A DNA stretch of 64,000 bases from an uncultured Bacteroidales bacterium (GCA_963719235.1 CAVRBS010000014.1:64688-128687); one strand, 5' to 3'. Positions 1 to 10,688 are shown, numbered from the stretch's first letter. Program-made: numbers and translations. Notes: generated from the sequence alone by a model not told the origin.

Positions 1-2
1 TG

Positions 3-356
3 GGAGGTGAGGTATATCCTGAAGGTTTATACAATATTCTCAAGAAATTCAGTCAATACAAGGGGATTAGAAACCTAATCGTAACAGAGAATGGTACCTG
101 CGTTCCTGACAAGCTTGAAGATGGACGGGTTCATGATAAGGAGAGAACAGAATATTATAAAAATCACCTCGCCGCTGTATTAAAGGCAAAGAAGGAAGGC
201 GTAAACGTAACCGGCTATTTTGCATGGTCGCCGACAGATAACTTCGAGTGGGACAAAGGCTTCAAGCCGCGTTTCGGACTTGTCTACGTTGATTTCAAGA
301 CACTGGAGCGGTATATCAAAGACTCCGGTCTCTGGTTCAGGGAGTTTCTTAAATAA
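3..356 (+). CDS. Glycoside hydrolase family 1 beta-glucosidase, C-terminal fragment (5' end outside window)
   Basis: Frame 3 is open from the window edge to TAA 354-356. It is absent from the ORF track because it has no start in the window. The translation ...IRNLIVTENGTCVPD...GYFAWSPTDNFEWDKGFKPRFGLVYVDF... carries the GH1 nucleophile motif (I/V)TENG and the GH1 C-terminal signature. Confidence 0.85.
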   Translation, partial: GGEVYPEGLYNILKKFSQYKGIRNLIVTENGTCVPDKLEDGRVHDKERTEYYKNHLAAVLKAKKEGVNVTGYFAWSPTDNFEWDKGFKPRFGLVYVDFKTLERYIKDSGLWFREFLK

Positions 357-404
357 GGTTAGGCGCGCGTCAGACGCTTGTTCCTCGTCAGGCGTTTTTC
401 CGTT

Positions 405-1993
405 CTATTTAACCCACTCCACCCGTGCTGACGGGTAGAAACTGATTCCCATGGCCGTCATCCGTTGGCCGTGATTTGCCAGGCGGACTTTATAATCATC
501 CCAGCTGCGCAGTTCCTTTGGTGTCCATCCTATCTCGGCATAACCAGGCAGGCGTGGAAAGAGAAGGTATTCAGCTTCAGCGCGGACAGCAATTGTTTCA
601 GCCCAGAGAGGAGCCTCTATCCCTAAGATGTTTTCCTTTTTTATTCCGGGAGCGAGACTGGCAGGATCCCAGTTGTAAGCCTCGTCGACCTCTATGTATG
701 CAGCCCAGTGTAATCCGTAGATGCTGGTCGAATCGTACTGCATGTCGATATAGGCATACTTTGACGGTGACATCAGCACTTTCGCACCCTGGGCAATGCC
801 TTTGAGGGCATTTGCCTCTTTGGCCCAGTACTGAACAGCGCTGTTGGGCTTCAGGGTTGCCAGGGCGATCTCGTCCCAGCCCAGCACCTGCTTGCCGTAA
901 GCGGCAACCGTATCCTGCACCCTGTTGACGAAAGGTATATAATCTTCCAGTTTGGTCGAATGTGATTCGTCACCACCGATGTGAAACCAGGGCCCGGGTG
1001 TAAGGGCGGACAGCTCACGGACGACATCACCGATGAATTTGTACGTAACTTCCTTGTGTGTTGCCAGCGAGCTGAAACCGACATCGGTGCCTGTGTACAG
1101 CTCCGTAGCCTTACCGCTGGCGTTTAATTCCGGGTATGATGCCAGGGCGGCATTGGTATGGCCCGGCATGTCGATCTCGGGGATAACGGTGATGAATCGC
1201 TCCTGAGCATATTTCACGATCTCGGAATACTGCTCCTGGGTATAGAATCCGCCTTCGCCCCCTCCTACTTCGCTCTTGCCGCCATGGGCAGTCAGGTTGG
1301 GCCACGATTTTATTTCGATCCTCCAGCCCTGGTCGTCGGACAGGTGGAGGTGAAGCACGTTCATCTTATAGGTTGCCAGCTGGTCGATAAAGATCTTAAT
1401 ATCATCCACCCCGAAGAAATGGCGTGCGACGTCGCGCATGGCTCCGCGATAGCCGTATGCCGGATAATCGCGGATCGTGCCTGTAGCAATCTCCCAGGGG
1501 CCTTCCTGTAGTGTGGCCATCTCAATCTTAGCGGGCAGAAGCTGCCTGAGGGTCTGAACACCGTAAAACAATCCTGCCGGCTTACTGGCAGTCAGCCTGA
1601 CCGATTTTTCATCGATAACCAGTTCGTAGCCTTCGTCGTCCAGTGCCGGATCATTTTCTGTCAGTGCAAGAAGAATTTTCCCCGGACAAGGTCTTTTTTC
1701 GTTGTTTTTACTTCAAGGCCAAACCCGGTGGAGGGATTCAGCCTGTCGGCCAGGTATTGTCCGATCTGCAGCAGTTCGGACGATTCCCCCTGAACATATA
1801 TGTCAGAACGGTCTGTAAGGGTGAATGAACCTCCTGCCGGTGTTATTGATACTGGTTTCGGAATGATATACGCTTTTGAAAGATCAGTGGGTGTTGATGC
1901 TTTCGGAAGGTCAGCGGGTGTTGAAGAGCAGGCAACAGTAGCTAACATTGTTGCTGAAGTCATGATGGCCACGATAGAGTTTAGTGTTTTCAA
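405..1993 (-). CDS. GH20 beta-N-acetylhexosaminidase lipoprotein, frame broken by a 1-nt indel at 1676-1683
   Basis: ORF 1661..1993 (signal peptide with lipobox ...LATVAC, GH20 N-domain) and ORF 405..1571 (HLHLSDDQGWR, GGDE region) are consecutive parts of one enzyme. The 405 frame stays open to at least 1700 and reads GKILLALTENDPALDDEGYELVIDEKSVRLTASKPAGLFYGVQTL. The two frames meet at the T4C4 run. Confidence 0.85.
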
Positions 1994-2133
1994 CGGCGGG
2001 TTATTTAATGTTTATAAGATTCAGTTCTCAGTTTCAGCCGGAAATCCGGTGGGATAAAGTTACTGAATTCAGTGAAGAATGCACAATGAGGCATTAGGCA
2101 GTAGGCAATAGGCAATAGTGATGGCGATGTTTT

Positions 2134-3183
2134 TTACAATGCGGTCAGAATATATTTTGATACGATTTCTAAAATGGGATATTCCTGCTCATTATCCCAG
2201 CTTATGTCAGGATTCGCAGTGGTCACGACAATCAGATCCAGCTCCGGGAAATTCATAATGTACTGCCCTCCCATCCCCCAGGCCATGAAGAGACTGTAGC
2301 CGTTCATCTTACCAAGCCACCACAGATAGCCATAGTTATAATCCGTCAGCACACCCCAGGTACCGTCTTTTGCAGCGGTCTTCTGCAGCGAAATATCTAC
2401 CCACCCGGCAGGCACTATCTGCCGGTTGTCTATCATCCCGTCATTTAGGTACATATATCCCAGCACTGCCATGTCATAAGGCTTCATGTAAATATCATAT
2501 CCGCCCACATTATATCCCTGGGGGTCGTGATCCCACTCAATTATCTCTATCCCCATCGGACCCGTGAGATTCTTCACCGCAAACTCCAGCGTGCTCATGC
2601 CGCTGACTTTAGTGATGATGGCCGAGAGGAGATGTGTCTGAAGGGAGTTATAGGAAAACTTCTGTCCGGGATCATACAGCAACGGAAGGTTAAATGTACC
2701 TTCGAGCCAGTCGCCAGAGGAGACAACAGGTATCAGGGTATTCTGCTCATTGTCTATCCCCATCCGCATCGTCAGCAGGTGCCTGACAGTTACATCAAAG
2801 AACCGCGGATCCATTCCATCATAAACATACTCGGGGAAGTAATCCATCACCTTCTTATCGGTACTCTCAATGAGGCCCTGGTGCAGTGCTATTCCCACCA
2901 GGGCAGACATGAAGCTCTTTGTATCTGACCAGATCTGATGAGCAGTATTTCGATCATACCCGTTATAATATCTTTCAGCAACCAGGTACCCGTTCTTAAT
3001 TATGAGGAGGGCATCAACGAAACCTGTCTGATCAGCTTCCAGATAAGCTTTATCTATCATACCCTGGTTTAGGCCCTGAGCTGCAGGCGTGGACACAGGC
3101 CACTGAAAACCAGACCTGTCTGATTCCGGTTGTTTATTACATCCCAGTAAGAGCAGGAAGGAGACCAATATCAGATCTTTCAT
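2134..3183 (-). CDS. Serine hydrolase of the beta-lactamase/transpeptidase-like family, lipoprotein
   Basis: ORF 2134..3270. The internal ATG at 3181-3183 gives the lipoprotein signal MKDLILVSFLLLLGC. It has an SxxK motif (SDTK) and an overall class-C-like profile. Confidence 0.75.
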   Translation of the reverse strand: MKDLILVSFLLLLGCNKQPESDRSGFQWPVSTPAAQGLNQGMIDKAYLEADQTGFVDALLIIKNGYLVAERYYNGYDRNTAHQIWSDTKSFMSALVGIALHQGLIESTDKKVMDYFPEYVYDGMDPRFFDVTVRHLLTMRMGIDNEQNTLIPVVSSGDWLEGTFNLPLLYDPGQKFSYNSLQTHLLSAIITKVSGMSTLEFAVKNLTGPMGIEIIEWDHDPQGYNVGGYDIYMKPYDMAVLGYMYLNDGMIDNRQIVPAGWVDISLQKTAAKDGTWGVLTDYNYGYLWWLGKMNGYSLFMAWGMGGQYIMNFPELDLIVVTTANPDISWDNEQEYPILEIVSKYILTAL

Positions 3184-3415
3184 CTTTCCCATAATAAGGA
3201 ATAATGAATATTTATTCCCACGGGATCGTTCCAGGTATTGACACAATAACTCCATAAGGAAACCCCGCAATAATAAGACCGTTTATCATGATGTGCACCC
3301 TATGTTACTTTTTCACCTCAATGCTATAACCAATATAGTGCAAATTGAACAAACGAACATTTGAAATCAGAGCGAACTGCATGCTTGCAGGACCTCAGAC
3401 CAGCCATCAAGAACC

Positions 3416-4696
3416 TTATTTATAGCCACAAATAGGCCAGATTTTCACTTCTGACCTCCTGATTGGCTCGCTTCTGAGCCCAAGCTTCACCGGAACCTCG
3501 AAAAGACGCTGCGACAACCGCATGGAATCCTTCCGTATGCAAGGCTGGAGTTTCGTAGCCAGTATTCTTACAGAGGGGAAAGGAATATCGGGTTGAGTTA
3601 AATCAACAACAATAACTTCGGAATCGATTTCCTTCAAACATGACAATAAAATCTCAATATTTTCTTTGATGTCAGATGTTGCGATATTTTTAAGGGCATC
3701 AAAATGAATTTCATCCATGAGATTGGATAAATAATACTGAGTTGCTCCGGACTTGAGCCATTTCTTATGATTGACAGAGGGTGGAAGCAGTTGTATTGCC
3801 TCAGTCAAGGCACGCTCAAGGGCAAGAGCAGGATCGGGATAACAACCAAATGCAACAGAACAGTTTGACGGATTCTTTTTGCAATGCAGGAAAACAGCTA
3901 TAAACGGGACTGGAATATCGGTTGTTCCAGATAGAATATAAACCTCAAAACCTTCGGCTGCCAGACGATCAATTGTTGGTTTACAATCTTTGGGAATGCT
4001 ATCAGGAATGACTCTTTTAAATGGCATCCGATTATATTCGCTAATAGTAACCTGGTCACGCTCAATAACTTCAAGAAGACCGTGAAGGATTGCTTCTTCC
4101 ATATTATTCCCTGAGGCAAGCCCGTTTGAATCAGATATCCCGATGTATTTCTCAATGCTGGATGCCATATAAGGACAAAAGACAAGATTTGCCGGAACCA
4201 AAACCGGTCTTTTTTGTGAAAAGGAATAGCCCCAGATCCAGTCAATTTTTTTTGCCCGATGAAAGTTGAAACTTTCGGCAAGACTGAAACGTTGCGGGTC
4301 TATTGCAAAATCACTGACCTCATCGAAAGATGATTCCACAATCTCATCATCATGGCTCATCCGGGCGTTATACCGCTCGAAGAATTCGAAACAGGCACTG
4401 GCTATGCTTTGATTAGTGCTGAGCCCTTTCCCGAAGTAATACTGATCTTGTGATTGATCGAAGGGTGAATGATATGTCAGGATTGCCTTGTTGGTTTTTC
4501 TGTATTTATTTTTAACGAAAGCAAACTGAACCTCGATTGGGCTTCTAAGAAAGAATTGTTCGATGTTGTTAATGGTTTCTGCAAGCGGAACAGACCGCTG
4601 ACCATTTTCTGCATAACACACAGTCCGGTTCTTCAATCGAATTTTACATTTTTTCCCCCGCCTGGCTATTGAAGTAGTCTGGTCTGTTTTCAGCAT
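3416..4696 (-). CDS. YcaO-domain protein (ATP-dependent amide-activating enzyme family)
   Basis: 426-aa ORF with the YcaO hallmarks GKG...SACFEFFERY and SNGLASGNNMEEAILHGLLEVIERD. No partner-domain genes lie nearby. Confidence 0.8.
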   Translation of the reverse strand: MLKTDQTTSIARRGKKCKIRLKNRTVCYAENGQRSVPLAETINNIEQFFLRSPIEVQFAFVKNKYRKTNKAILTYHSPFDQSQDQYYFGKGLSTNQSIASACFEFFERYNARMSHDDEIVESSFDEVSDFAIDPQRFSLAESFNFHRAKKIDWIWGYSFSQKRPVLVPANLVFCPYMASSIEKYIGISDSNGLASGNNMEEAILHGLLEVIERDQVTISEYNRMPFKRVIPDSIPKDCKPTIDRLAAEGFEVYILSGTTDIPVPFIAVFLHCKKNPSNCSVAFGCYPDPALALERALTEAIQLLPPSVNHKKWLKSGATQYYLSNLMDEIHFDALKNIATSDIKENIEILLSCLKEIDSEVIVVDLTQPDIPFPSVRILATKLQPCIRKDSMRLSQRLFEVPVKLGLRSEPIRRSEVKIWPICGYK

Positions 4697-4742
4697 ATTA
4701 AATAAAATGCGAACAACAATTTCCTTAAATTTAATTCAGGAG

Positions 4743-5303
4743 TTATCTGAGCTTTATATTAGAGCCAGCTGTAGCCGCTGTCGCAACAGTTGTCATTTTA
4801 ACGACAGGCCGGCTGACAACTCCTTCAAAAGTGTCAATGGCACCTTCCTTTAAGGTAATAATAAATGCCTCTGTCTCTGCCATTTGTGTATTGAATTTAT
4901 CTGTTTCTCCGGTAACGACTTTAACATAAATTCTGGAATTGGCTACGTTTTTCAGATCCACGACAACGGAACCCGATCCTTTGGTGTTGATGATCCCTTT
5001 TGAATTCGGGAATGCACCGTAATTCTCTCTTTCGTCACTTGCGGCTACAGCCACGAAATAATGCCTTCCCGGCTTTCCATTAATCGTAACAGTCAATGTC
5101 GAACCCGAACCACTGATGACAGCTTTTTCCTGAATATCCCGCGTCTTATTTTGCTGTACCTGTGACAACTCAGATGCGGAATTCGCTTCATTTTCAGGAG
5201 AAATTTTTAAGCTCACAAAAAAATATGGTACTGCTCCCAGGAAAATTCCTGTTTTTCCGATAAGTCCAAGAGCTTCCCTCCGTGTTTTTATTTCTTTTTT
5301 CAT
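4743..5303 (-). CDS. Hypothetical exported protein with twin-arginine-like signal
   Basis: 186-aa ORF 46 nt upstream of YcaO on the same strand. The N-terminus is MKKEIKTRREALGLIGKTGIFLGAV (RR motif plus a hydrophobic stretch). The C-terminus is T/A/G/S-rich (KMTTVATAATAGSNIKLR). Confidence 0.6.
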   Translation of the reverse strand: MKKEIKTRREALGLIGKTGIFLGAVPYFFVSLKISPENEANSASELSQVQQNKTRDIQEKAVISGSGSTLTVTINGKPGRHYFVAVAASDERENYGAFPNSKGIINTKGSGSVVVDLKNVANSRIYVKVVTGETDKFNTQMAETEAFIITLKEGAIDTFEGVVSRPVVKMTTVATAATAGSNIKLR

Positions 5304-5673
5304 TTTCTGATCTCCCAGATATTTTGTTTCTAACCTGTGATATAAAATTATATATACTTTCTTCCTGACTGGTTTATTGAAGAATTACATCCCGAAATAA
5401 TTTTCTTATCAAATTTAAAACAATTACAAGCCATAATCAATTTTAAAATATCCTTTTATAGAAGGCCATTAATTACAAATAAAAAATGGGAATTATTTTT
5501 ACAGTGCTTCGTGTGTAATATGGAAGTTATTAGCATCAAAGTTTAGATACGAAAGTATTAAATACTTTTAGAAGCAGACAGCATTGAAGGTGCAGGGTTC
5601 GCGGAATATAGCCCGGGTAAACATTTCACCTGCTGGTTTGTTTAAGTTAAAGATAACAAAACCGTGCCTGGAG

Positions 5674-6279
5674 ATGAAAACAGTTAATGCAACTATTATT
5701 ACAGTTCTGGCTTTGTTAATAATACAATCTTTCAATACAATGGCTTTCGCAAAAACAGAAAAACAAAAATACACTGTTGTTCATAAGGAGAAGGAATTCG
5801 AGATCAGGTTCTATCCTTCCGCTGTCCTTGCAACAGTATATACTGATGCCAGATCATATAAAGAGCTGGCCAACCCGGGTTTCAGGAAGCTTGCCGGATA
5901 TATTTTCGGCGGCAATGAATCGGACACTAAAATATCAATGACATCACCCGTGCACATGGATATTAACAGCCCGTCATCTTCCATGAGCTTTGTTATGCCA
6001 TCGTCATACAATGAGGAAAACCTTCCGAAACCAGACGATCCTGGTGTAATTATCGAAAGAACCGAGGATGTACATGTCGCCGTAATAACTTTCGGCGGGT
6101 ATGCCTCAGATAATGACATAAAGAAATACTCGGAAAAATTAAGAACCCTGCTCGACGAAAAAGGGATCACCCGGTACGGAAATTTCAGGTATCTGGGATA
6201 CAATCCTCCTTTCCAGCCTTTTGGCAGAAAAAATGAAATAATAGTATCTGTTCAATGGCCTGAAAACAGTTCTAAATGA
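5674..6279 (+). CDS. SOUL heme-binding family protein (secreted)
   Basis: ORF 5584..6279. ATG 5674 gives the signal peptide MKTVNATIITVLALLIIQSFNTMAFA. The SOUL/HBP profile is present: YTVVHKEKEFEIRFYP, GFRKLAGYIFGGN, ITFGGYASD, YNPPFQPFGRKNEI. Confidence 0.8.
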   Translation: MKTVNATIITVLALLIIQSFNTMAFAKTEKQKYTVVHKEKEFEIRFYPSAVLATVYTDARSYKELANPGFRKLAGYIFGGNESDTKISMTSPVHMDINSPSSSMSFVMPSSYNEENLPKPDDPGVIIERTEDVHVAVITFGGYASDNDIKKYSEKLRTLLDEKGITRYGNFRYLGYNPPFQPFGRKNEIIVSVQWPENSSK

Positions 6280-6284
6280 TTACG

Positions 6285-6926
6285 TCAGGAAGTCCGGCTT
6301 TTTATGACCCTGACAGATACAACCGCCAGGATAACTAAGCTGACAAGGATCCAAACAGCCAGTATCAGAATTGCCAGCAGGGCAAAACTGAAGTCGATAT
6401 CAAACTGGAACTGTTGCTGTTGGAATTTCCAAACCCCGTCCTCCTTCACCATTATGCCTGTCAGGCGCAACGGTATGACCAGGAGCTTTGACAGGTCAAA
6501 TTCCACGTAGCCTCTTGTTGAAAACCATGCAATGTCTCCCGCGGATGAAATATTTGCACTGTCGGGATTGAACTTGCAATCGCCCCAGGATTCCCAGTCA
6601 CTTCGCACCAGAGAGGTTGCTCTTTCATAACCGCTGAAAATTTCATTGGGGTTTGTTCCAAGGATCAGTAAATTTTCCCTGGAATAAAGTGATTCCATAA
6701 ACGCGTCTACCTGGCTGGTATCACGTTTGGAGTAGCCGTCCTGAAATTTATTTAACTGGCCAATGATCTCATTCCTTGTGCTGTCGGGAGCATTTCCTGC
6801 GGAATATACAGATGTAGCCGGAGATAAGATTTTTTGCTCATCAGCTCTTCTGAATATCCGGGTAACAAGAAAAAGAATTACCAGCAGTAATATTATTCTC
6901 AGTAAGATCTTAACTATCTCTTTCAT
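6285..6926 (-). CDS. Membrane-anchored NTF2/SnoaL-like (DUF4440-like) protein
   Basis: 213-aa ORF with N- and C-terminal hydrophobic helices. The central segment NKFQDGYSKRDTSQVDAFM...DIAWFSTRGYVEF is typical of SnoaL/NTF2-like folds. The family call is tentative. Confidence 0.5.
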   Translation of the reverse strand: MKEIVKILLRIILLLVILFLVTRIFRRADEQKILSPATSVYSAGNAPDSTRNEIIGQLNKFQDGYSKRDTSQVDAFMESLYSRENLLILGTNPNEIFSGYERATSLVRSDWESWGDCKFNPDSANISSAGDIAWFSTRGYVEFDLSKLLVIPLRLTGIMVKEDGVWKFQQQQFQFDIDFSFALLAILILAVWILVSLVILAVVSVRVIKSRTS

Positions 6927-7656
6927 GTTTTCAGTTTAAAAGGAAATTGGCATGCTGAACGCAAGATTGCCGTAAATGCCGCTATACGGATTTCTTCCAG
7001 TATACAGGCCTGATTTTTCAGTCTTTTTTAGTGAAAGCCCGTTGTGACAACCTGGCTATAACCACTCCTATCGAGGCGCCCAGGGCCAGAATAAGCCAGA
7101 ATCCGGCATGAGCTGGTTTACATTCAATTCTTGGTGTAGAAAACCAGGTACAGGCTGAGTGTAATTACCAGTGGCATCAGTGCGGAAATGATTTCATTTC
7201 TCTTTTTCATGTTACAGAGTTTTCTTCATTGTTTAAAAGTCTAATATATAAGAAATTAGCGGATAGACTCTTCCTATATTAATAATATTTTTATAAAAGC
7301 CTTGTAATTAATACGATACAAGAGGAATTACTGCATATTTCTGGCCGTGTCGTGGCTCAGACAGTAACGCTCCAAATGCCCTTCCCTCCTGCTGACCTCA
7401 GTCGCGTTCCCTTATCCGGAAAAATCTCAGGCCAATCCTTTAAGAATGGGTAATTGGTGGAAGCAAATAGGAAAACTTGCTTCATCCGGAAATTATCTTA
7501 GGCCAGTCCTTTAGATTTGAGAACGAAAATTGCTACCTCAAAAAATTTGCCGTATGAAAGTTTGCTCAATCCTAGCCTCCTTAGCGTCAACTGCGTTAAA
7601 GCTTCGAGAATGAAGCGGGCACTAGTGTAACTTTAAGGACTTTAAAGACTTACGAC

Positions 7657-9441
7657 TTAATCGACCTGCAGCGGAGCGATGTATTGCAGCCTGGTACCCC
7701 CTGAAGTAAAGCCTTCAATGATGACCGTATATTCCATGGCCTCATCGGAAGTGCAGAACTCAACGGCGGCAGCACCGTCGGCTGATGTGGCCACATCCGG
7801 GTTCCAGTAAAGAGTGTTGCGGAAATCCGGAATCCTGCTTAACCTCGCAGAGTCATTGCTGTAGTCAGGTGAATAAAAAATCTCATCCTTAAGACAGCCC
7901 TCATATACCTGCCTGAAAACAGAACTGCTTGACTCAATGGCACTTAACGACCCTTCTTTGGAGACAAAGCTTATGATTCCCTCAAAAATATAATCGGAAT
8001 AAAAATATCTGGTATTGATGATCTCTATCCTCTCCAGCTCCTTTGCGCTGACTTTCATCAACTCCTCAATATCATATACCGGAACCCCGTCAAAAAGCAC
8101 CAGTGCCGGATTATTAAAAATCTGGTACGGGTTGCTGCTGACAACCTTCAGGGCAGCCTTCTTATCCTTTGTGAATAATGTCACTTCGGGAAGGATCTCT
8201 TTCACCACCTCACGGATGTTTGACAGCTCAATATAATCTGACATATCAACAGTATGGTCGGAGCCGCCAAAAAAGTCACGGGTTTCAAAAGCAACAGGAG
8301 CAGCGCTTTTATCCCTGACCTGTTCGTAATTATTATTGACCTGCATGGCTATCACGGCATTGTTCAGCTTCGCGGCGAGGCTGCTGTCGGGCATAAAGAC
8401 TGGCGGACTAAATCCGTAATAAGTATTGCAGAATGGCTGATGCAGCTCGACATAGCTTCCTGAAATATCAGGGATAAGAGGCTGAATGACAATTTCCGCC
8501 AGTCCATCCTGGTCCTTGACCACAAAAATAAACTCCCCTTTTGCATTTGTCCTGGTGAACTGGCATCGTGCAGTCTTACCGACAAAGGACAGAGAGATAT
8601 CCGTCTCCCTCAACGGCTGGTTGGTAATCCTGTTAAAGATAACGCCCCTGATCAGCTCTCCCTCCAGTTCAGGCAGATGAGACCCTGATCCTAAAGGATC
8701 ACTTAACGAGCCATCATTGGCCTGTCCGGTAAAAAGATATTTCCGGTCAGTACCTGCAAGGTAAGACTTCATAACAGATACGGACAGATCAGCTTCGACA
8801 GGCCTTCCGTCAGTTCCGGCGACAGAAATATCTATTTTTACCCTGTCTCTCATCCCGTACTTCTTCCGGTCTGTATTGGCTGTTATCTTAACCTGGTCTT
8901 CAGTCGCTTCTTTGCAGGTTAATTCATTGCTTTCAACATAAGAAAGACCATTGCCGTTTACCTGCCCCGGGATTTGTGTTACAAGGTCATTGAGATCCTT
9001 AAACGGGTTGATCACCGTGATTGTCGTGTAAGAGAAGTAATTTTCCGGGAAATTCTCCATCCAGCTTGTATACGCCCTTAACAGGTAGTTACCCGAGCTA
9101 AGTGTATCTGAAAGCCTGAACACCGCTGATCCCGAAGTCCCTTCAACCCTGATCCTGGCCTGCCTGACGGGGTTATTGCCGGCGTTAAGCATTTCAAGAT
9201 AGACGATCTTGCTGAAACCGACCGGCAGGCACGAAAGCTCATCCATTTCATACACCTTTACCCGGACCTGCTCACCCGTGATGTAAATCTCCCTGTCGGT
9301 GATGATAAAAAGCTTTTCCCGGTAGTTATCGGACGTATCAACAGTTTTGCCTGCGCTTTGCCCCCACGCTGTCATGCCCATAACAGGAGCGACGACTAAA
9401 AGAGGGAGCAGAAGCAGCAGGGATTTTCTATTGATTCTCAT
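7657..9441 (-). CDS. Secreted hypothetical protein with MG2-like repeats and a plug-like C-terminal segment
   Basis: 594-aa ORF with a signal peptide (MRINRKSLLLLLPLLVVAPVMG). TDREIYITGEQVRVKV and TDRKKYGMRDRVKIDI resemble alpha-2-macroglobulin MG2 strands. LFDGVPVYDIEELMKVSAKELERIEI resembles a TonB-receptor plug. Confidence 0.55.
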   Translation of the reverse strand: MRINRKSLLLLLPLLVVAPVMGMTAWGQSAGKTVDTSDNYREKLFIITDREIYITGEQVRVKVYEMDELSCLPVGFSKIVYLEMLNAGNNPVRQARIRVEGTSGSAVFRLSDTLSSGNYLLRAYTSWMENFPENYFSYTTITVINPFKDLNDLVTQIPGQVNGNGLSYVESNELTCKEATEDQVKITANTDRKKYGMRDRVKIDISVAGTDGRPVEADLSVSVMKSYLAGTDRKYLFTGQANDGSLSDPLGSGSHLPELEGELIRGVIFNRITNQPLRETDISLSFVGKTARCQFTRTNAKGEFIFVVKDQDGLAEIVIQPLIPDISGSYVELHQPFCNTYYGFSPPVFMPDSSLAAKLNNAVIAMQVNNNYEQVRDKSAAPVAFETRDFFGGSDHTVDMSDYIELSNIREVVKEILPEVTLFTKDKKAALKVVSSNPYQIFNNPALVLFDGVPVYDIEELMKVSAKELERIEIINTRYFYSDYIFEGIISFVSKEGSLSAIESSSSVFRQVYEGCLKDEIFYSPDYSNDSARLSRIPDFRNTLYWNPDVATSADGAAAVEFCTSDEAMEYTVIIEGFTSGGTRLQYIAPLQVD

Positions 9442-9452
9442 GACATTCCGAC

Positions 9453-10688
9453 TTACTTCAGATCAATCCACCAGTCCGGTTGCACAAAGGATCCCGTCAA
9501 CTCACAGTCCGAGCATTCGTTAATGACAAAAACCAGGTCTTCCAGTTCATCGGTTTCCTCATTATATATAGGTTCAACAAATGTAAACTCACCTTCGCCG
9601 ACAAACATCTGATACAACTCATCCCAGGACATAGGCTCATTCATGGAGCCCTCCACCCAGTAATCCAGCGGTGAAACCACAAATCTTTTACAGTCAGGTT
9701 TAAACCACGGGAGGTTAAGTTCGTCGAGCTCACCGGGAGTTATATACTTTCTTTCCTGTTTTACAGCTGAGACCTGGAAATAACCCAGCACTTTTTCACC
9801 CGGATCATTCAGACAGCTGACGTTGCTTATTACCAGGTAAGGCTGTTCATCAAAGATAGTGCCTCCGGCTTCATTCACCTGTTTAAGATTATTCCAGAAA
9901 TCATATGCTTCCTTGGAGAGGGAATATTGTTTTACAAGGATACTATATTGCAATATCAGACGGTCGGACTTTGATGAAGCGACGAAGCAGACAGGTGCTT
10001 TTCTGATGAAATCATCCTCCCCCGGCACTATAGAACCTTCTACGATAGTTGACGATTTCACTGTCTTCCAGCAGAAATCCTTTACATCATAAATCGGTAA
10101 AATCACCGTATCATTGATATAATCATAACGCTTATAATCAGCCAGTTTGAACTTCCAGGTCTCTTCGTACTCCCATCGCAGGTACTGGTTCTCCCCGGAG
10201 CCCTCTTCTGTATCGACATAAATTCTTATGCCCTCCAGGATTTCGCTCTGATCGCCGCTGTACTCTTCATCATTTTCATAATAAATATCTTCAATCCCCG
10301 GAACGGGAAGCATTAAAGCGGGATCTGACGCATATTCCCTTCCGTCAGCAGTTGTGATATGCAGAGTATACGTTTTACCTGTAACACCCGTGAATTCTTC
10401 AGGGTCTGTCACGTATGATCCGTTACCGCTAAGTCCGAGGTACGCTTTATTACCCGATTCATCTGAAATATATACAGTGGCGTCCGTAACTCTTTCAGGA
10501 TCTGAATCTTCATTCTGAACACTGCGAGTCAGCCGGACTTCATAAGGAACAGCTTCGTCAGTCACCAGACCTTCTACAACAAGAAGAGATTCATAACCCT
10601 TAAGAACGGGAGTATAAGGATCAATGCAGGTACTGAATGCCCATGCCACAAGCAGCAATACAATGGCTTTTGAGAACGGCTTTAGCAT
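9453..10688 (-). CDS. DUF4249-family lipoprotein
   Basis: ORF 9453..10757. ATG 10686-10688 gives MLKPFSKAIVLLLVAWAFSTC followed by IDPYTPVLKGYESLLVVEGLVTDE...YEVRLTRS, the typical DUF4249 N-terminus. Confidence 0.7.
   Translation of the reverse strand: MLKPFSKAIVLLLVAWAFSTCIDPYTPVLKGYESLLVVEGLVTDEAVPYEVRLTRSVQNEDSDPERVTDATVYISDESGNKAYLGLSGNGSYVTDPEEFTGVTGKTYTLHITTADGREYASDPALMLPVPGIEDIYYENDEEYSGDQSEILEGIRIYVDTEEGSGENQYLRWEYEETWKFKLADYKRYDYINDTVILPIYDVKDFCWKTVKSSTIVEGSIVPGEDDFIRKAPVCFVASSKSDRLILQYSILVKQYSLSKEAYDFWNNLKQVNEAGGTIFDEQPYLVISNVSCLNDPGEKVLGYFQVSAVKQERKYITPGELDELNLPWFKPDCKRFVVSPLDYWVEGSMNEPMSWDELYQMFVGEGEFTFVEPIYNEETDELEDLVFVINECSDCELTGSFVQPDWWIDLK

Follow-up and report, generated by a model that had tools for sequence, protein, structure and literature searches.

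The window, i.e., the whole 64,000-nucleotide stretch of DNA analysed from an uncultured Bacteroidales bacterium (GCA_963719235.1 CAVRBS010000014.1:64688-128687), carries on its minus strand a gene for a 186-aa protein (hereafter, the partner) followed after 46 nt by a gene for a YcaO enzyme. The features of the site were as follows.

4743-5303, minus strand: partner (putative precursor) gene, 186 aa, starting MKKEIKTRREALGLIGKTGIFLGAV... and ending ...KMTTVATAATAGSNIKLR
5196..5303, minus strand: signal segment of the partner (residues 1-36), with a basic N-region, T-R-R-E-A-L-G, a moderately hydrophobic stretch, and S-L-K-x-x-P
5136..5195, minus strand: linker (residues 37-56), variable, acidic/polar, disordered
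4809..5135, minus strand: Ig-like beta-sandwich body (residues 57-165), with the motif G-K-P-G-R-H and the end F-E-G-V-V-S-R
4746..4808, minus strand: C-terminal tail (residues 166-186), PVVKMTTVATAATAGSNIKLR, disordered; Ala-rich motif (A174-x-x-A177...), semi-conserved; basic end
4697..4742, minus strand: spacer of 46 nt from the partner stop to the YcaO start
3416-4696, minus strand: YcaO gene, 426 aa, stand-alone, C-terminus ...VKIWPICGYK
3419..3439, minus strand: C-terminal motif of YcaO, W-P-I-C-G-Y-K-COOH, family-specific (family form W-P-x-C-G-Y-K/R)
3324-3407, minus strand: 27-codon ORF beginning 8 nt past the YcaO stop

The coordinates and quoted sequences of all three ORFs in a first-pass annotation, made from the sequence alone, were correct. 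No terminator-like site was found in the 46-nt spacer, and the spacer was short, or the genes overlapped, in all related loci. The two genes are likely to share one transcript, as inferred from their common strand and the short spacer, without evidence of co-transcription. The genes within 5 kb of the pair encode a GH20, a beta-lactamase-fold hydrolase, a SOUL protein, and a SnoaL-like protein; further away (~7.6-10.8 kb) lie a gene for a secreted protein of 594 aa and an ORF of 434 aa. An E1/Ocin-ThiF protein, TfuA, a dehydrogenase, and an exporter were absent among the genes around the pair, including the distant ones, which upheld the first-pass claim that none of them lies within 5 kb. The cassette also has no protease; leader removal would need YcaO or a general peptidase. 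The source genome is 83% complete and contains a duplicate of the locus, in which the tail of the partner contains Cys.

The 426-aa protein matched the Pfam YcaO model (PF02624) over profile positions 2-323 of 325 (E 5e-71, 240 bits against a cut-off of 25.7) and scored above the cut-off of the YcaO kinase domain model TIGR00702 (160.5 versus 75.65 bits). Its ATP/Mg motif residues (E104/E107/R108, E200/E201, and E209/E212/R213/D214) were invariant in 68 homologues and aligned to identical residues of TruD, confirming the ATP/Mg-binding glutamate motifs that had been proposed. Family membership suggests an ATP-dependent enzyme that activates backbone amides; activity on the partner has not been shown. 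The AlphaFold2 model (pLDDT 91.7) had no extra domain, and the nearest structures were LynD, MusD, and TruD (TMq 0.78-0.81), then MJ1094 (0.73). The enzyme is not of the E. coli housekeeping type, a placement that would have refuted the first-pass reading: NF040716 gave 52.5 bits against a cut-off of 700, and E. coli YcaO (PDB 4q84) matched weakly and only over residues 187-302 (E 3.7e-10). The TOMM SagD-type model TIGR03604 was the best NCBIfam match at 193.4 bits, still below its cut-off of 219.25, and methan_mark_1 (TIGR03266) reached 168.4 bits, below its equivalog cut-off of 365. Overall similarity did not decide between azoline and thioamide chemistry (E 1.5e-25 for TruD versus 5.9e-25 for MJ1094; 193 bits for TOMM versus 168 for methan_mark_1). 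No E1-like/Ocin-ThiF or RRE component was fused or adjacent to the enzyme, only the 186-aa family being conserved beside YcaO in 16 loci. No TfuA (PF07812) or other sulfur-delivery gene was found in the source genome (83% complete) and five other cassette genomes; this absence does not exclude thioamidation, because TfuA-independent thioamidation is known.

The C-terminal W-P-I-C-G-Y-K lies roughly at the presumed place of PxPxP in azoline-forming YcaOs, a placement that does not rest on an alignment. The first-pass annotation had noted that the C-terminus lacks a Pro-rich tail, and this held, with W-P-x-C-G-Y-K/R found instead. C-G-[YFW] was located at the end, or within two residues of it, in 92 of 120 homologues; among the 68 homologues above, G424 was invariant and C423 was conserved in at least 90%. 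In one subclade, the Cys of this motif is replaced by Val and the partner is normal, which weakens the C-terminal Cys as a candidate for an essential persulfide carrier.

The partner matched no Pfam or NCBIfam model (in Pfam, none even at E<=10), and no description of it was found in the literature searched, which also held nothing relevant on YcaO with Tat or signal-peptide precursors or on the AVAGVRG motif introduced below. Its homologues comprised 24 close ones, and 68 matches were obtained among the 1.84 billion representatives searched. The protein is built of four parts (RR signal segment, variable linker, Ig-like beta-sandwich, and disordered tail), of which the signal segment is the most conserved, with a mean pairwise identity of 0.66 compared with 0.53 for the body and 0.20 for the linker. 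R8, R9, L12, G19, and F28 of the signal segment were invariant in the partner alignment. In the AlphaFold2 model, linker residues 38-55 had a pLDDT below 50, the body formed eight strands with a pLDDT of ~75-90, and the tail had a pLDDT of ~33. No specific fold could be assigned, as Foldseek against the PDB gave only generic Ig-like sandwiches, all at E>0.01. One RiPP-type criterion, a conserved recognition region combined with a more variable C-terminal core, was met by this layout. It is possible that the signal segment doubles as a recognition ('leader') element, although this is only inferred.

The partner gene was located immediately upstream of YcaO in all 24 informative loci, 18 of which were reached from the partner side and six (6/6) from the YcaO side. 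Lack of conservation of the 186-aa gene beside homologous YcaOs had been set beforehand as an outcome that would refute the first-pass reading, and this outcome was not observed at any informative locus. The pairing was kept at YcaO identities as low as 36% and spanned Bacteroidales, Prolixibacteraceae, Chitinophagaceae, and one delta-proteobacterial MAG. A further RiPP-type criterion, a precursor gene adjoining and co-oriented with its maturase in a pairing kept across taxa (24/24 informative loci), was thereby met. All-against-all clustering of flanking ORFs showed that the YcaO and partner families alone recurred in all 16 loci for which flanks were available, the next most frequent neighbour family being present in 3 of the 16, all close relatives; because only these two families recur, the linkage is far beyond chance. 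The two-family result of this clustering also ruled out a third conserved component (protease, exporter, dehydrogenase, or beta-lactamase-fold hydrolase). The two proteins co-diverged, with partner/YcaO identities of 90/94, 65/77, 52/58, and 36-45/47-51%. Of the 401 genomes of the phylum that were sampled, one contained the partner, which also occurs in other phyla, and from this rare and patchy distribution we infer an accessory cassette and not a housekeeping YcaO. The hosts are uncultured sediment and soil bacteria.

The 27-codon ORF was rejected as a precursor or part of the system. Outside the window it occurred solely in the intragenomic duplicate, in a copy with three amino-acid changes, and the DNA downstream of YcaO was unrelated in loci L012 and L007, whose YcaOs are 96% and 94% identical. 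The ORF had been described from the start as lacking independent support, and it remains so.

The window's own tail is Thr/Ser-rich (TTVATAATAGS), whereas the residues enriched in tails family-wide are Ala, Cys, and Met and not Thr, Ser, or Gly, a caveat to the earlier description of a Thr/Ala/Gly/Ser-rich tail. Ala makes up 18% of the tails versus 8% of the bodies, and Cys is enriched ~10-fold in the tails. A174 and A177 were conserved in at least 90% of the sequences, 38 of 40 members had A..A[ATSVG] in their final 30 residues, and with a mean tail identity of 0.36-0.42 the motif is only semi-conserved. In nearly all tails, Thr, Ser, or Cys sits 1-3 residues after the Ala run; no nucleophile occupies a fixed tail position, and C and G alternate at the same motif position. 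A role of the tail as a C-terminal sorting signal (PEP-CTERM/LPXTG-like) was rejected, as the hydrophobic stretch is too short and because the tandem proteins P0159 and P0161, in which the unit of sandwich and Ala-rich motif is repeated twice, carry the motif internally after the first sandwich. The tail is our candidate for the modified region (the 'core'), a role that is inferred without any demonstrated modification. Low-complexity tails may keep their composition without being substrates.

Set against the S/T-R-R-x-F-L-K-like motif of Tat substrates, the window's partner reads T-R-R-E-A-L-G. RR was present in 40 of 41 clade members, and [STKP]RR.[AVFLI][LI] in 39 of 41; RR was absent in the distant YcaO-linked members of the partner family. 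The best 19-residue Kyte-Doolittle window of the signal segment was 1.57, and no Tat-signal model in Pfam/NCBIfam matched the partner. TatC was not found in the source genome (83% complete), which contains two TatA/B genes, and was found in five of the five other cassette genomes. The segment may be a Tat-like signal or a signal-anchor, and the label 'Tat' is plausible but unproven. The RR-type Tat signal of the first-pass annotation was accordingly only partly supported, in that RR is nearly universal in the clade and Tat export is not demonstrated. YcaO has no signal or transmembrane segment and no hydrophobic N-terminus; the enzyme is predicted to be cytoplasmic and the bulk of the partner extracytoplasmic. 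It is established biochemistry that YcaO enzymes need ATP. As the YcaO lacks a signal or transmembrane segment and needs ATP, any modification would have to precede export, an order that is inferred from topology.

A distant sister subfamily shares the sandwich body of the partner (hhalign probability 99.0, E 5e-18) and differs in its tails, which carry AVAGVRG in 42 of 97 members and several other motif classes. In three of three contexts, the sister gene was followed by genes for a B12-radical-SAM enzyme and a double rSAM/SPASM enzyme, the latter passing the cut-off for PapB ranthipeptide maturases (348 versus 340 bits). Since both the tails and the maturases differ from those of the YcaO clade, a change of tail class accompanies a change of maturase class, and the sandwich scaffold is inferred from this pairing to behave as a precursor family common to both. 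It is conceivable that the radical-SAM enzymes encoded beside the sister genes act on a different substrate. The first of two options offered initially, that the partner is a substrate modified on its C-terminal tail, gains support from the sister subfamily, again without a modification having been shown.

The best explanation in our judgement, to which we assign a probability of roughly 0.6 in the absence of any demonstrated modification, is a self-contained two-gene cassette for post-translational modification, in which YcaO acts on the tail of the partner before export. The upstream gene would encode an exported precursor protein and the downstream gene a stand-alone cytoplasmic YcaO. The precursor would be bound by YcaO in the cytoplasm, with the conserved signal segment, the sandwich, or both probably taking the part of a leader in recognition. 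ATP-dependent O-phosphorylation by YcaO would then activate at least one backbone amide within A-x-x-A-A-[T/S/V]-x-[C/G]..., and a nucleophile would resolve the activated amide. The modified, folded protein would be exported, by Tat in the window's clade and through Sec-type signals in distant clades, to the periplasm or cell surface, where the modified tail would provide the function, perhaps metal binding. The gene anatomy, obligate pairing, fold predictions, motif conservation, and contexts of the sister family are shown. That YcaO acts on the partner, at which site and by which chemistry it does so, that modification comes before export, and what the signal segment contributes are only inferred.

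If the tail is the substrate, a backbone thioamide formed from sulfide is ranked first, as a proposal that could go either way, followed by an azoline formed from a neighbouring Thr, Ser, or Cys, for which the odds are slightly unfavourable, and by an amidine or MusD-like cleavage, which can only be called conceivable. The slight preference for a thioamide over an azoline rests on the absence of E1/RRE and PxPxP, the Ala-rich tails, the lack of a fixed nucleophile, and the MJ1094-like architecture. An azoline is not excluded, because the YcaO is marginally closer to LynD/TruD/MusD than to MJ1094 in sequence and structure.

Among the alternatives, the variant in chemistry survives best. It is possible that YcaO is a cyclodehydratase that forms (methyl)oxazolines or thiazolines from Thr, Ser, or Cys of the tail, as in a TOMM system without a dehydrogenase. 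The Thr/Ser-rich tail in the window, the Cys in the duplicate copy, the Thr/Ser/Cys placed 1-3 residues past the Ala run, and the ~10-fold enrichment of Cys in tails are in its favour, as are the best NCBIfam match (TOMM SagD) and the best structures (LynD/TruD/MusD), the C-terminal segment included. Stand-alone azoline-forming YcaOs also exist, e.g., the thiazoline-forming YcaO of bottromycin. Against it, the TOMM score falls short of the cut-off (193 < 219.25), an E1-like/Ocin-ThiF/RRE partner or fusion and a dehydrogenase are absent, WPxCGY[KR] stands in place of the PxPxP end, the nucleophile position is not fixed, and across the family the tails show no enrichment of Thr or Ser.

A second alternative, which we regard as unlikely, is that the partner is an accessory (membrane anchor, chaperone, regulator, or immunity-like protein) and that the true substrate, either a short unannotated peptide or a cellular protein, has its gene at another place. 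There are precedents for stand-alone YcaOs that act on proteins encoded far away (E. coli YcaO/uL16 and archaeal YcaO/McrA; PMC13063428), no modification of the partner has been shown, and the hydrophobic N-segment is conserved to a degree that is unusual for a mere signal peptide and might be expected of a transmembrane interaction element. However, no other gene or small ORF was conserved beside the pair in 16 loci (the 27-codon ORF was not), and the presence of the cassette in 1 of 401 genomes makes a universal housekeeping substrate unlikely. The predicted topology, with the bulk of the partner extracytoplasmic and YcaO cytoplasmic, also speaks against this alternative, and the partner homologues with unrelated maturases and other tails fit a substrate scaffold and not a YcaO-specific helper. 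The remaining alternative, that YcaO cleaves the partner in an ATP-dependent, MusD-like manner or forms an amidine or other crosslink, releasing or cyclising a tail peptide, is very unlikely: MusD (PDB 7u58, 'YcaO-mediated ATP-dependent peptidase activity') ranks high in both the structure and sequence matches, the cassette has no protease, and a released peptide could lie between the variable linker and the basic C-terminal end, but the likeness to MusD is no greater than that to LynD or TruD, an exporter for the peptide is absent, the signal segment would be pointless if a cytoplasmic tail peptide alone mattered, and the doubled (sandwich + tail) unit of the tandem proteins speaks for a tail that works jointly with its domain.

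The two-gene cassette was compared with known systems. LynD, TruD, and MusD (PDB 4v1t, 4bs9, and 7u58), the best sequence and structure matches (E 1e-24 to 1e-25), share with the window YcaO the ATP/Mg glutamate motifs and a C-terminal R-L-(F/Y)-(E/D)-V-P-V-K-L-G (R-L-F-E-V-P-V-K-L-G in the window). They differ in being ~780 aa long, in having fused E1-like/RRE domains, by which a short leader peptide is bound, and in their Pro-rich end; compared with these cyanobactin heterocyclases, the window YcaO is 426 aa long and stand-alone, and its presumed substrate is a signal-bearing, folded protein of 186 aa. The archaeal McrA-thioglycine YcaOs (MJ1094, PDB 6pe3/6peu; M. kandleri, 6ci7) are of similar size, stand-alone, and act on a protein substrate, MJ1094 matching the window YcaO at E 5.9e-25 with a TMt of 0.80, and some of the archaeal McrA enzymes work without TfuA in sulfidic settings (PMC13063428). 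The window YcaO is nevertheless not an orthologue, with its TIGR03266 score of 168 bits against 365. It also has a bacterial host and an adjacent substrate gene for a putatively exported protein, and a thioamide has not been shown. E. coli YcaO, which thioamidates the ribosomal protein uL16 (PMC13063428), likewise modifies a full-length protein without TfuA, but it is a widely conserved housekeeping enzyme of 586 aa with a TPR dimerisation domain, whereas the window cassette is rare and patchy.

Bufferins/oxazolins are RiPPs whose MNIO-modified precursors bear signal peptides, which reportedly contribute to the recognition element (PMC12452194). The likeness lies in a precursor gene directly before the maturase gene, an export signal in place of a classical leader, precursors that are in some cases protein-sized, and modification that precedes export. 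Bufferin systems differ in using an MNIO (DUF692) with a DUF2063 partner, whereas YcaO is the only conserved enzyme of the window cassette, which has no such partner protein, and the likeness is therefore one of logic only. The window partner also has no conserved Cys motif and an RR/Tat-like instead of a Sec signal. NHLP/Nif11-type long leaders are known to be reused with variable C-terminal cores and different maturase classes, the same pattern as that of the YcaO clade versus the radical-SAM clade of the partner scaffold. These leaders are cytoplasmic, ~70-80 aa long, and removed by a PCAT-type exporter, and they are neither signal peptides nor Ig-like folds; the partner has no sequence similarity to them and no Pfam or NCBIfam match.

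In a bolder reading, which we consider as likely to fail as to hold, the partner founds an unrecognised superfamily of exported carrier precursors into which lineages plug different maturases, namely a stand-alone YcaO in the window and B12-rSAM plus PapB-like rSAM/SPASM enzymes in other cases. Each carrier would combine an Ig-like sandwich with a signal segment that also serves as leader and with a short core at its C-terminus. If this reading is true, the cassette would be the first YcaO system with a secreted, folded, backbone-modified protein product, made by two genes without partner proteins or TfuA and with a W-P-x-C-G-Y-K/R active-site tail.

The known chemistry of YcaO enzymes (azolines, thioamides, and amidines) concerns short leader-bearing peptides and two cytoplasmic proteins, McrA and uL16, and a 2026 paper held that more protein substrates are still undiscovered (PMC13063428). 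The cassette is a testable candidate, as it consists of two genes without accessory proteins, and its substrate is small and probably soluble with the presumed site in a disordered 20-residue tail. Should no modification be found, what remains is merely two conserved neighbouring genes without a known function in uncultured bacteria from sediment and soil. If the modification is confirmed, YcaO biology would be extended to exported proteins, and YcaO would be the second enzyme class, after MNIO/bufferins, to use signal-peptide-bearing precursors; one would then have to ask what keeps the precursor from being exported too early. Confirmation would further provide a new precursor scaffold common to radical-SAM pathways and useful in genome mining, and a compact enzyme/tag pair with which backbone modifications could be installed on proteins.

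The 186-aa partner gene and the stand-alone YcaO gene lie side by side on the minus strand, and the ORFs, coordinates, strand, and peptide strings in the first-pass annotation were all confirmed when re-derived from the window.

Features of the locus
4743-5303, minus strand: partner ORF, 186 aa (ORF call)
46 nt, minus strand: spacer between the partner and YcaO ORFs
3416-4696, minus strand: stand-alone YcaO, 426 aa (ORF call and Pfam)
3324-3407, minus strand: 27-codon ORF starting 8 nt past the YcaO stop

The 27-codon ORF was not conserved and was rejected as a member of the system. The YcaO is flanked by a GH20 hydrolase, a beta-lactamase-fold hydrolase, a SOUL protein, and a SnoaL-like membrane protein, and a 594-aa secreted protein and a 434-aa ORF lie farther from the cassette (about 7.6-10.8 kb). 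No E1/Ocin-ThiF protein, TfuA, dehydrogenase, or exporter was identified among the flanking genes inspected (out to ~10.8 kb), in line with the earlier claim for 5 kb, and TfuA was absent from the window's own genome (83% complete) and five other cassette-bearing genomes.

Window 1-9460 (~9.5 kb), which takes in the GH20, beta-lactamase-fold, YcaO, partner, SOUL, SnoaL, and 594-aa genes, has a second copy on the same contig at a distance of ~39 kb (C14:16614-25598; loci L028-L031 and L002), inverted and 95-97% identical. The YcaO of this copy contains an in-frame TAA, and its partner tail, ...TTVASAATACSNIKLR, includes a Cys. Two origins are possible: a genuine, old inverted duplication in which one copy is decaying, or chimeric joining of sequence from two strains in the MAG. 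The element at window 2085-2124, just past the stop of the beta-lactamase-fold gene (AGGCAAT-type array), occurs in >30 copies (89-100% identity) spread over at least 12 of the genome's contigs, and is thus a dispersed genome-wide repeat and not a local feature.

The linkage of the two genes was examined from both sides, through partner homologues and through increasingly distant YcaOs. Only 24 partner homologues were retrieved from a collection of 5.8 billion proteins; partner loci numbered five in 185,579 species genomes (Bacteroidales, Prolixibacteraceae, Chitinophagaceae, and one 'delta proteobacterium' MAG) and ten in metagenome contigs. A YcaO of 53-96% identity was located directly downstream of the partner wherever the downstream DNA sufficed, two contigs being uninformative as they end too early. 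YcaOs of 51, 49, 47, 47, 42, and 36% identity were all (6/6) preceded by a gene of 184-218 aa (at locus L025, the contig ends within this gene, of which 132 aa remain), which matched the partner profile or visibly had the same architecture. With the window and its intragenomic duplicate included, partner and YcaO were adjacent at 24 of 24 informative loci, and the conservation of the partner beside homologous YcaOs, which the first-pass annotation had proposed to check, was thereby confirmed. The identities of the two proteins dropped in parallel across loci. When the flanking ORFs of 16 loci were clustered all against all, only the partner and YcaO families were present in all 16, and the next most frequent family was found at three, all close relatives. 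Of 401 genomes sampled across the phylum, only the window's own matched the partner profile, and only 68 of 1.84 billion representative proteins matched at E<=1e-3; given this rarity, the cassette represents a mobile or patchy two-gene unit and not a housekeeping YcaO.

The earlier YcaO call and its glutamate motifs both held. The protein matched Pfam YcaO (E 5e-71, 2-323 of 325 profile positions) and scored above the TIGR00702 cut-off, and the ATP-Mg motifs (E104/E107/R108, E200/E201, and E209/E212/R213/D214) were invariant in 68 homologues, with the same residues in aligned TruD. It is stand-alone and has no hydrophobic N-terminus, from which a cytoplasmic location is inferred. In sequence, it is equally distant from the cyanobactin heterocyclases (TruD 1.5e-25, MusD, LynD) and the thioamide-forming M. 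jannaschii YcaO (5.9e-25). In structure (AlphaFold2 model, pLDDT 91.7), LynD/MusD/TruD ranked first (TMq ~0.8), followed by MJ1094 (0.73), M. kandleri YcaO, E. coli YcaO (0.56), and McbD. The protein fell under the cut-off of every functional NCBIfam model: TOMM SagD (193 bits against 219.25), methan_mark_1 (168 against 365), and the E. coli-type model (52 against 700), so that clustering with E. coli-type YcaO, named earlier as a refutation, was not observed. The reported lack of the Pro-rich tail of azoline-forming YcaOs also held: in place of PxPxP, the family ends in a conserved W-P-x-C-G-Y-K/R (window 3419-3439), and C-G-[YFW] lies at or within two residues of the end in 92 of 120 homologues; one subclade has Val instead of the Cys.

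The partner begins with a 36-residue segment comprising an invariant RR (T/S-R-R-E/D-A-L-G), a moderately hydrophobic stretch (KD 1.57 over 19 residues), and S-L-K-x-S-P. An AlphaFold2 model built with the family alignment predicted a disordered linker (residues 38-55), an Ig-like beta-sandwich (residues ~57-165, pLDDT ~75-90), and a disordered tail (residues 171-186, pLDDT ~33). Foldseek returned only generic Ig-like folds, and no Pfam or NCBIfam model matched, even with Pfam scanned at E<=10. Mean pairwise identity was 0.66 in the signal, 0.53 in the body, 0.20 in the linker, and 0.36 in the tail; the best-conserved region is therefore the signal, which is unusual for a signal peptide.

In the tail, at least 90% of sequences keep A174 and A177, and A..A[ATSVG] occurs within the last 30 residues of 38 of 40 members, recurrently as A-x-x-A-A-[T/S/V]-x-[C/G]-[Y/F/S] followed by a basic end. 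Compared with the body, tails are enriched in Ala (18% vs 8%), Cys (2.0% vs 0.2%), and Met; Thr and Ser are not enriched, and the 'Thr/Ala/Gly/Ser-rich' description thus holds for the window's protein and fails as a family signature. Two distant tandem partners, P0159 (329 aa) and P0161 (328 aa), carry one signal and two copies of the sandwich plus Ala-rich motif (e.g., ...VAYVAAAAGYRN... and ...IAATAAAAGFAAS...). As the motif follows each sandwich, it belongs with the domain, and a C-terminal sorting signal was rejected on the same repetition. The tail of the closest relative (locus L007) is only seemingly truncated by a one-base frameshift, with ...AAAACSNIKLR in the next frame (L007:6440-6560), and a single frameshift splits the partner gene within the body at L011:5827-6571. 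Since the sequence downstream stays open and conserved, these are probably assembly indels of the two MAGs and not decay. Many tails finish the motif with (C/G)-(Y/F), such as ...AGY and ...VCY, and the YcaO itself has the W-P-x-C-G-Y-K/R end; mimicry of the substrate motif by the enzyme terminus, or competition with it, is raised only as a question.

A more distant sister subfamily also emerged from the profile search; its members share the sandwich and have a classical Sec-type signal, ...TVPxxAxA (hhalign of the two subfamilies: probability 99.0, E 5e-18, 90 columns). Its tails carry AVAGVRG in 42 of 97 members, nearly always at the very C-terminus, besides several other tail classes; the VRG motif was found in none of 40 YcaO-linked proteins. 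In the three contexts inspected, YcaO was absent, and the sandwich protein was followed by a B12-binding radical SAM (rSAM) enzyme (~504 aa) and an SDR.

Gene clusters of the sister subfamily
L035:692-9344: CHAT-TPR first; double rSAM/SPASM and second B12-rSAM directly after the SDR
L037:2022-10549: CHAT-TPR first; double rSAM/SPASM and second B12-rSAM directly after the SDR
L036:5001-10534: no CHAT-TPR in the order; gap after the SDR, then another B12-rSAM

The first B12-rSAM best matched the RiPP rSAM ApyD family, below cut-off, and the double rSAM/SPASM protein (717-779 aa across the two loci) passed the PapB ranthipeptide-maturase cut-off (348 bits vs 340) and also resembled QhpD. Source annotations of the members were Proteobacteria, Syntrophobacter, Smithellaceae, Geobacteraceae, Nitrospirota, Phycisphaerae, and Aminicenantes MAGs. 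From gene context, the sister cluster is itself likely an apparently undescribed radical-SAM RiPP or protein-modification system. One scaffold is thus paired with two unrelated peptide-maturase classes, and because a different enzyme class comes with a different tail motif, it behaves as a precursor family with the tail as core. We regard this pattern as the strongest indirect evidence for the partner as the substrate of the YcaO.

The first option of the first-pass annotation, a partner modified in its tail, is therefore supported as far as genomics reaches, and we favor it with a probability of about 0.6; the enzyme-substrate relation, site, chemistry, and export order are all inferred from comparative genomics and predicted structures. 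The YcaO would bind the precursor in the cytoplasm through the conserved signal segment and/or the sandwich, and bufferin signal peptides are reported as part of the recognition element (PMC12452194). It would then activate one or more backbone amides in the Ala-rich tail with ATP, a nucleophile would resolve the activated intermediate, and the modified protein would be exported. As YcaO needs ATP and export of the partner body and tail from the cytoplasm is predicted, by Tat or not, modification would have to precede export, an order that Tat fits because it exports folded proteins. A 'Tat-like' signal is reasonable and unproven: RR is near-universal in the partner clade and missing in distant YcaO-linked members (e.g., locus L026), and no Tat-signal HMM matched the partner. 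TatC (PF00902) was found in all five other cassette-bearing genomes; in the window's genome, only two TatA/B genes were found, and the missing TatC is most likely a gap of the 83%-complete assembly.

No modification data exist, and thioamide is inferred to be slightly ahead of azoline for several reasons: both an E1/RRE partner and a terminal PxPxP are lacking; the core is rich in Ala, shows no Thr/Ser enrichment, and has no nucleophile at a fixed position; one motif position is taken by either C or G; the enzyme resembles MJ1094 in size and stand-alone form; and the hosts come from sediments and soils, with TfuA-less thioamidation using sulfide being known (PMC13063428). The thioviridamide core (...VMAAAATV...) also seems to resemble tail motifs such as IAMAAT and TMAAV. 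Azoline formation on the tail, the slightly weaker candidate, is not excluded, as Thr/Ser/Cys lies near the Ala run in almost all tails, the YcaO C-terminal segment resembles TruD, and stand-alone azoline-forming YcaOs exist. MusD-type cleavage and amidine formation are minor options. Metal binding by the modified tail is no more than a guess.

Whole-protein YcaO substrates are known in McrA and, since 2026, uL16 (PMC13063428), and signal-bearing RiPP precursors, called highly unusual, are known for MNIO enzymes (PMC12452194). NHLP and Nif11 are long conserved leaders common to several maturase classes. Within the searchable literature, no YcaO was found to be described as paired with a folded precursor that bears a signal, and the sandwich family was found neither there nor in Pfam or NCBIfam. 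What is new here is the precursor scaffold and the minimal architecture, within what would be YcaO-dependent RiPP-like or protein modification.
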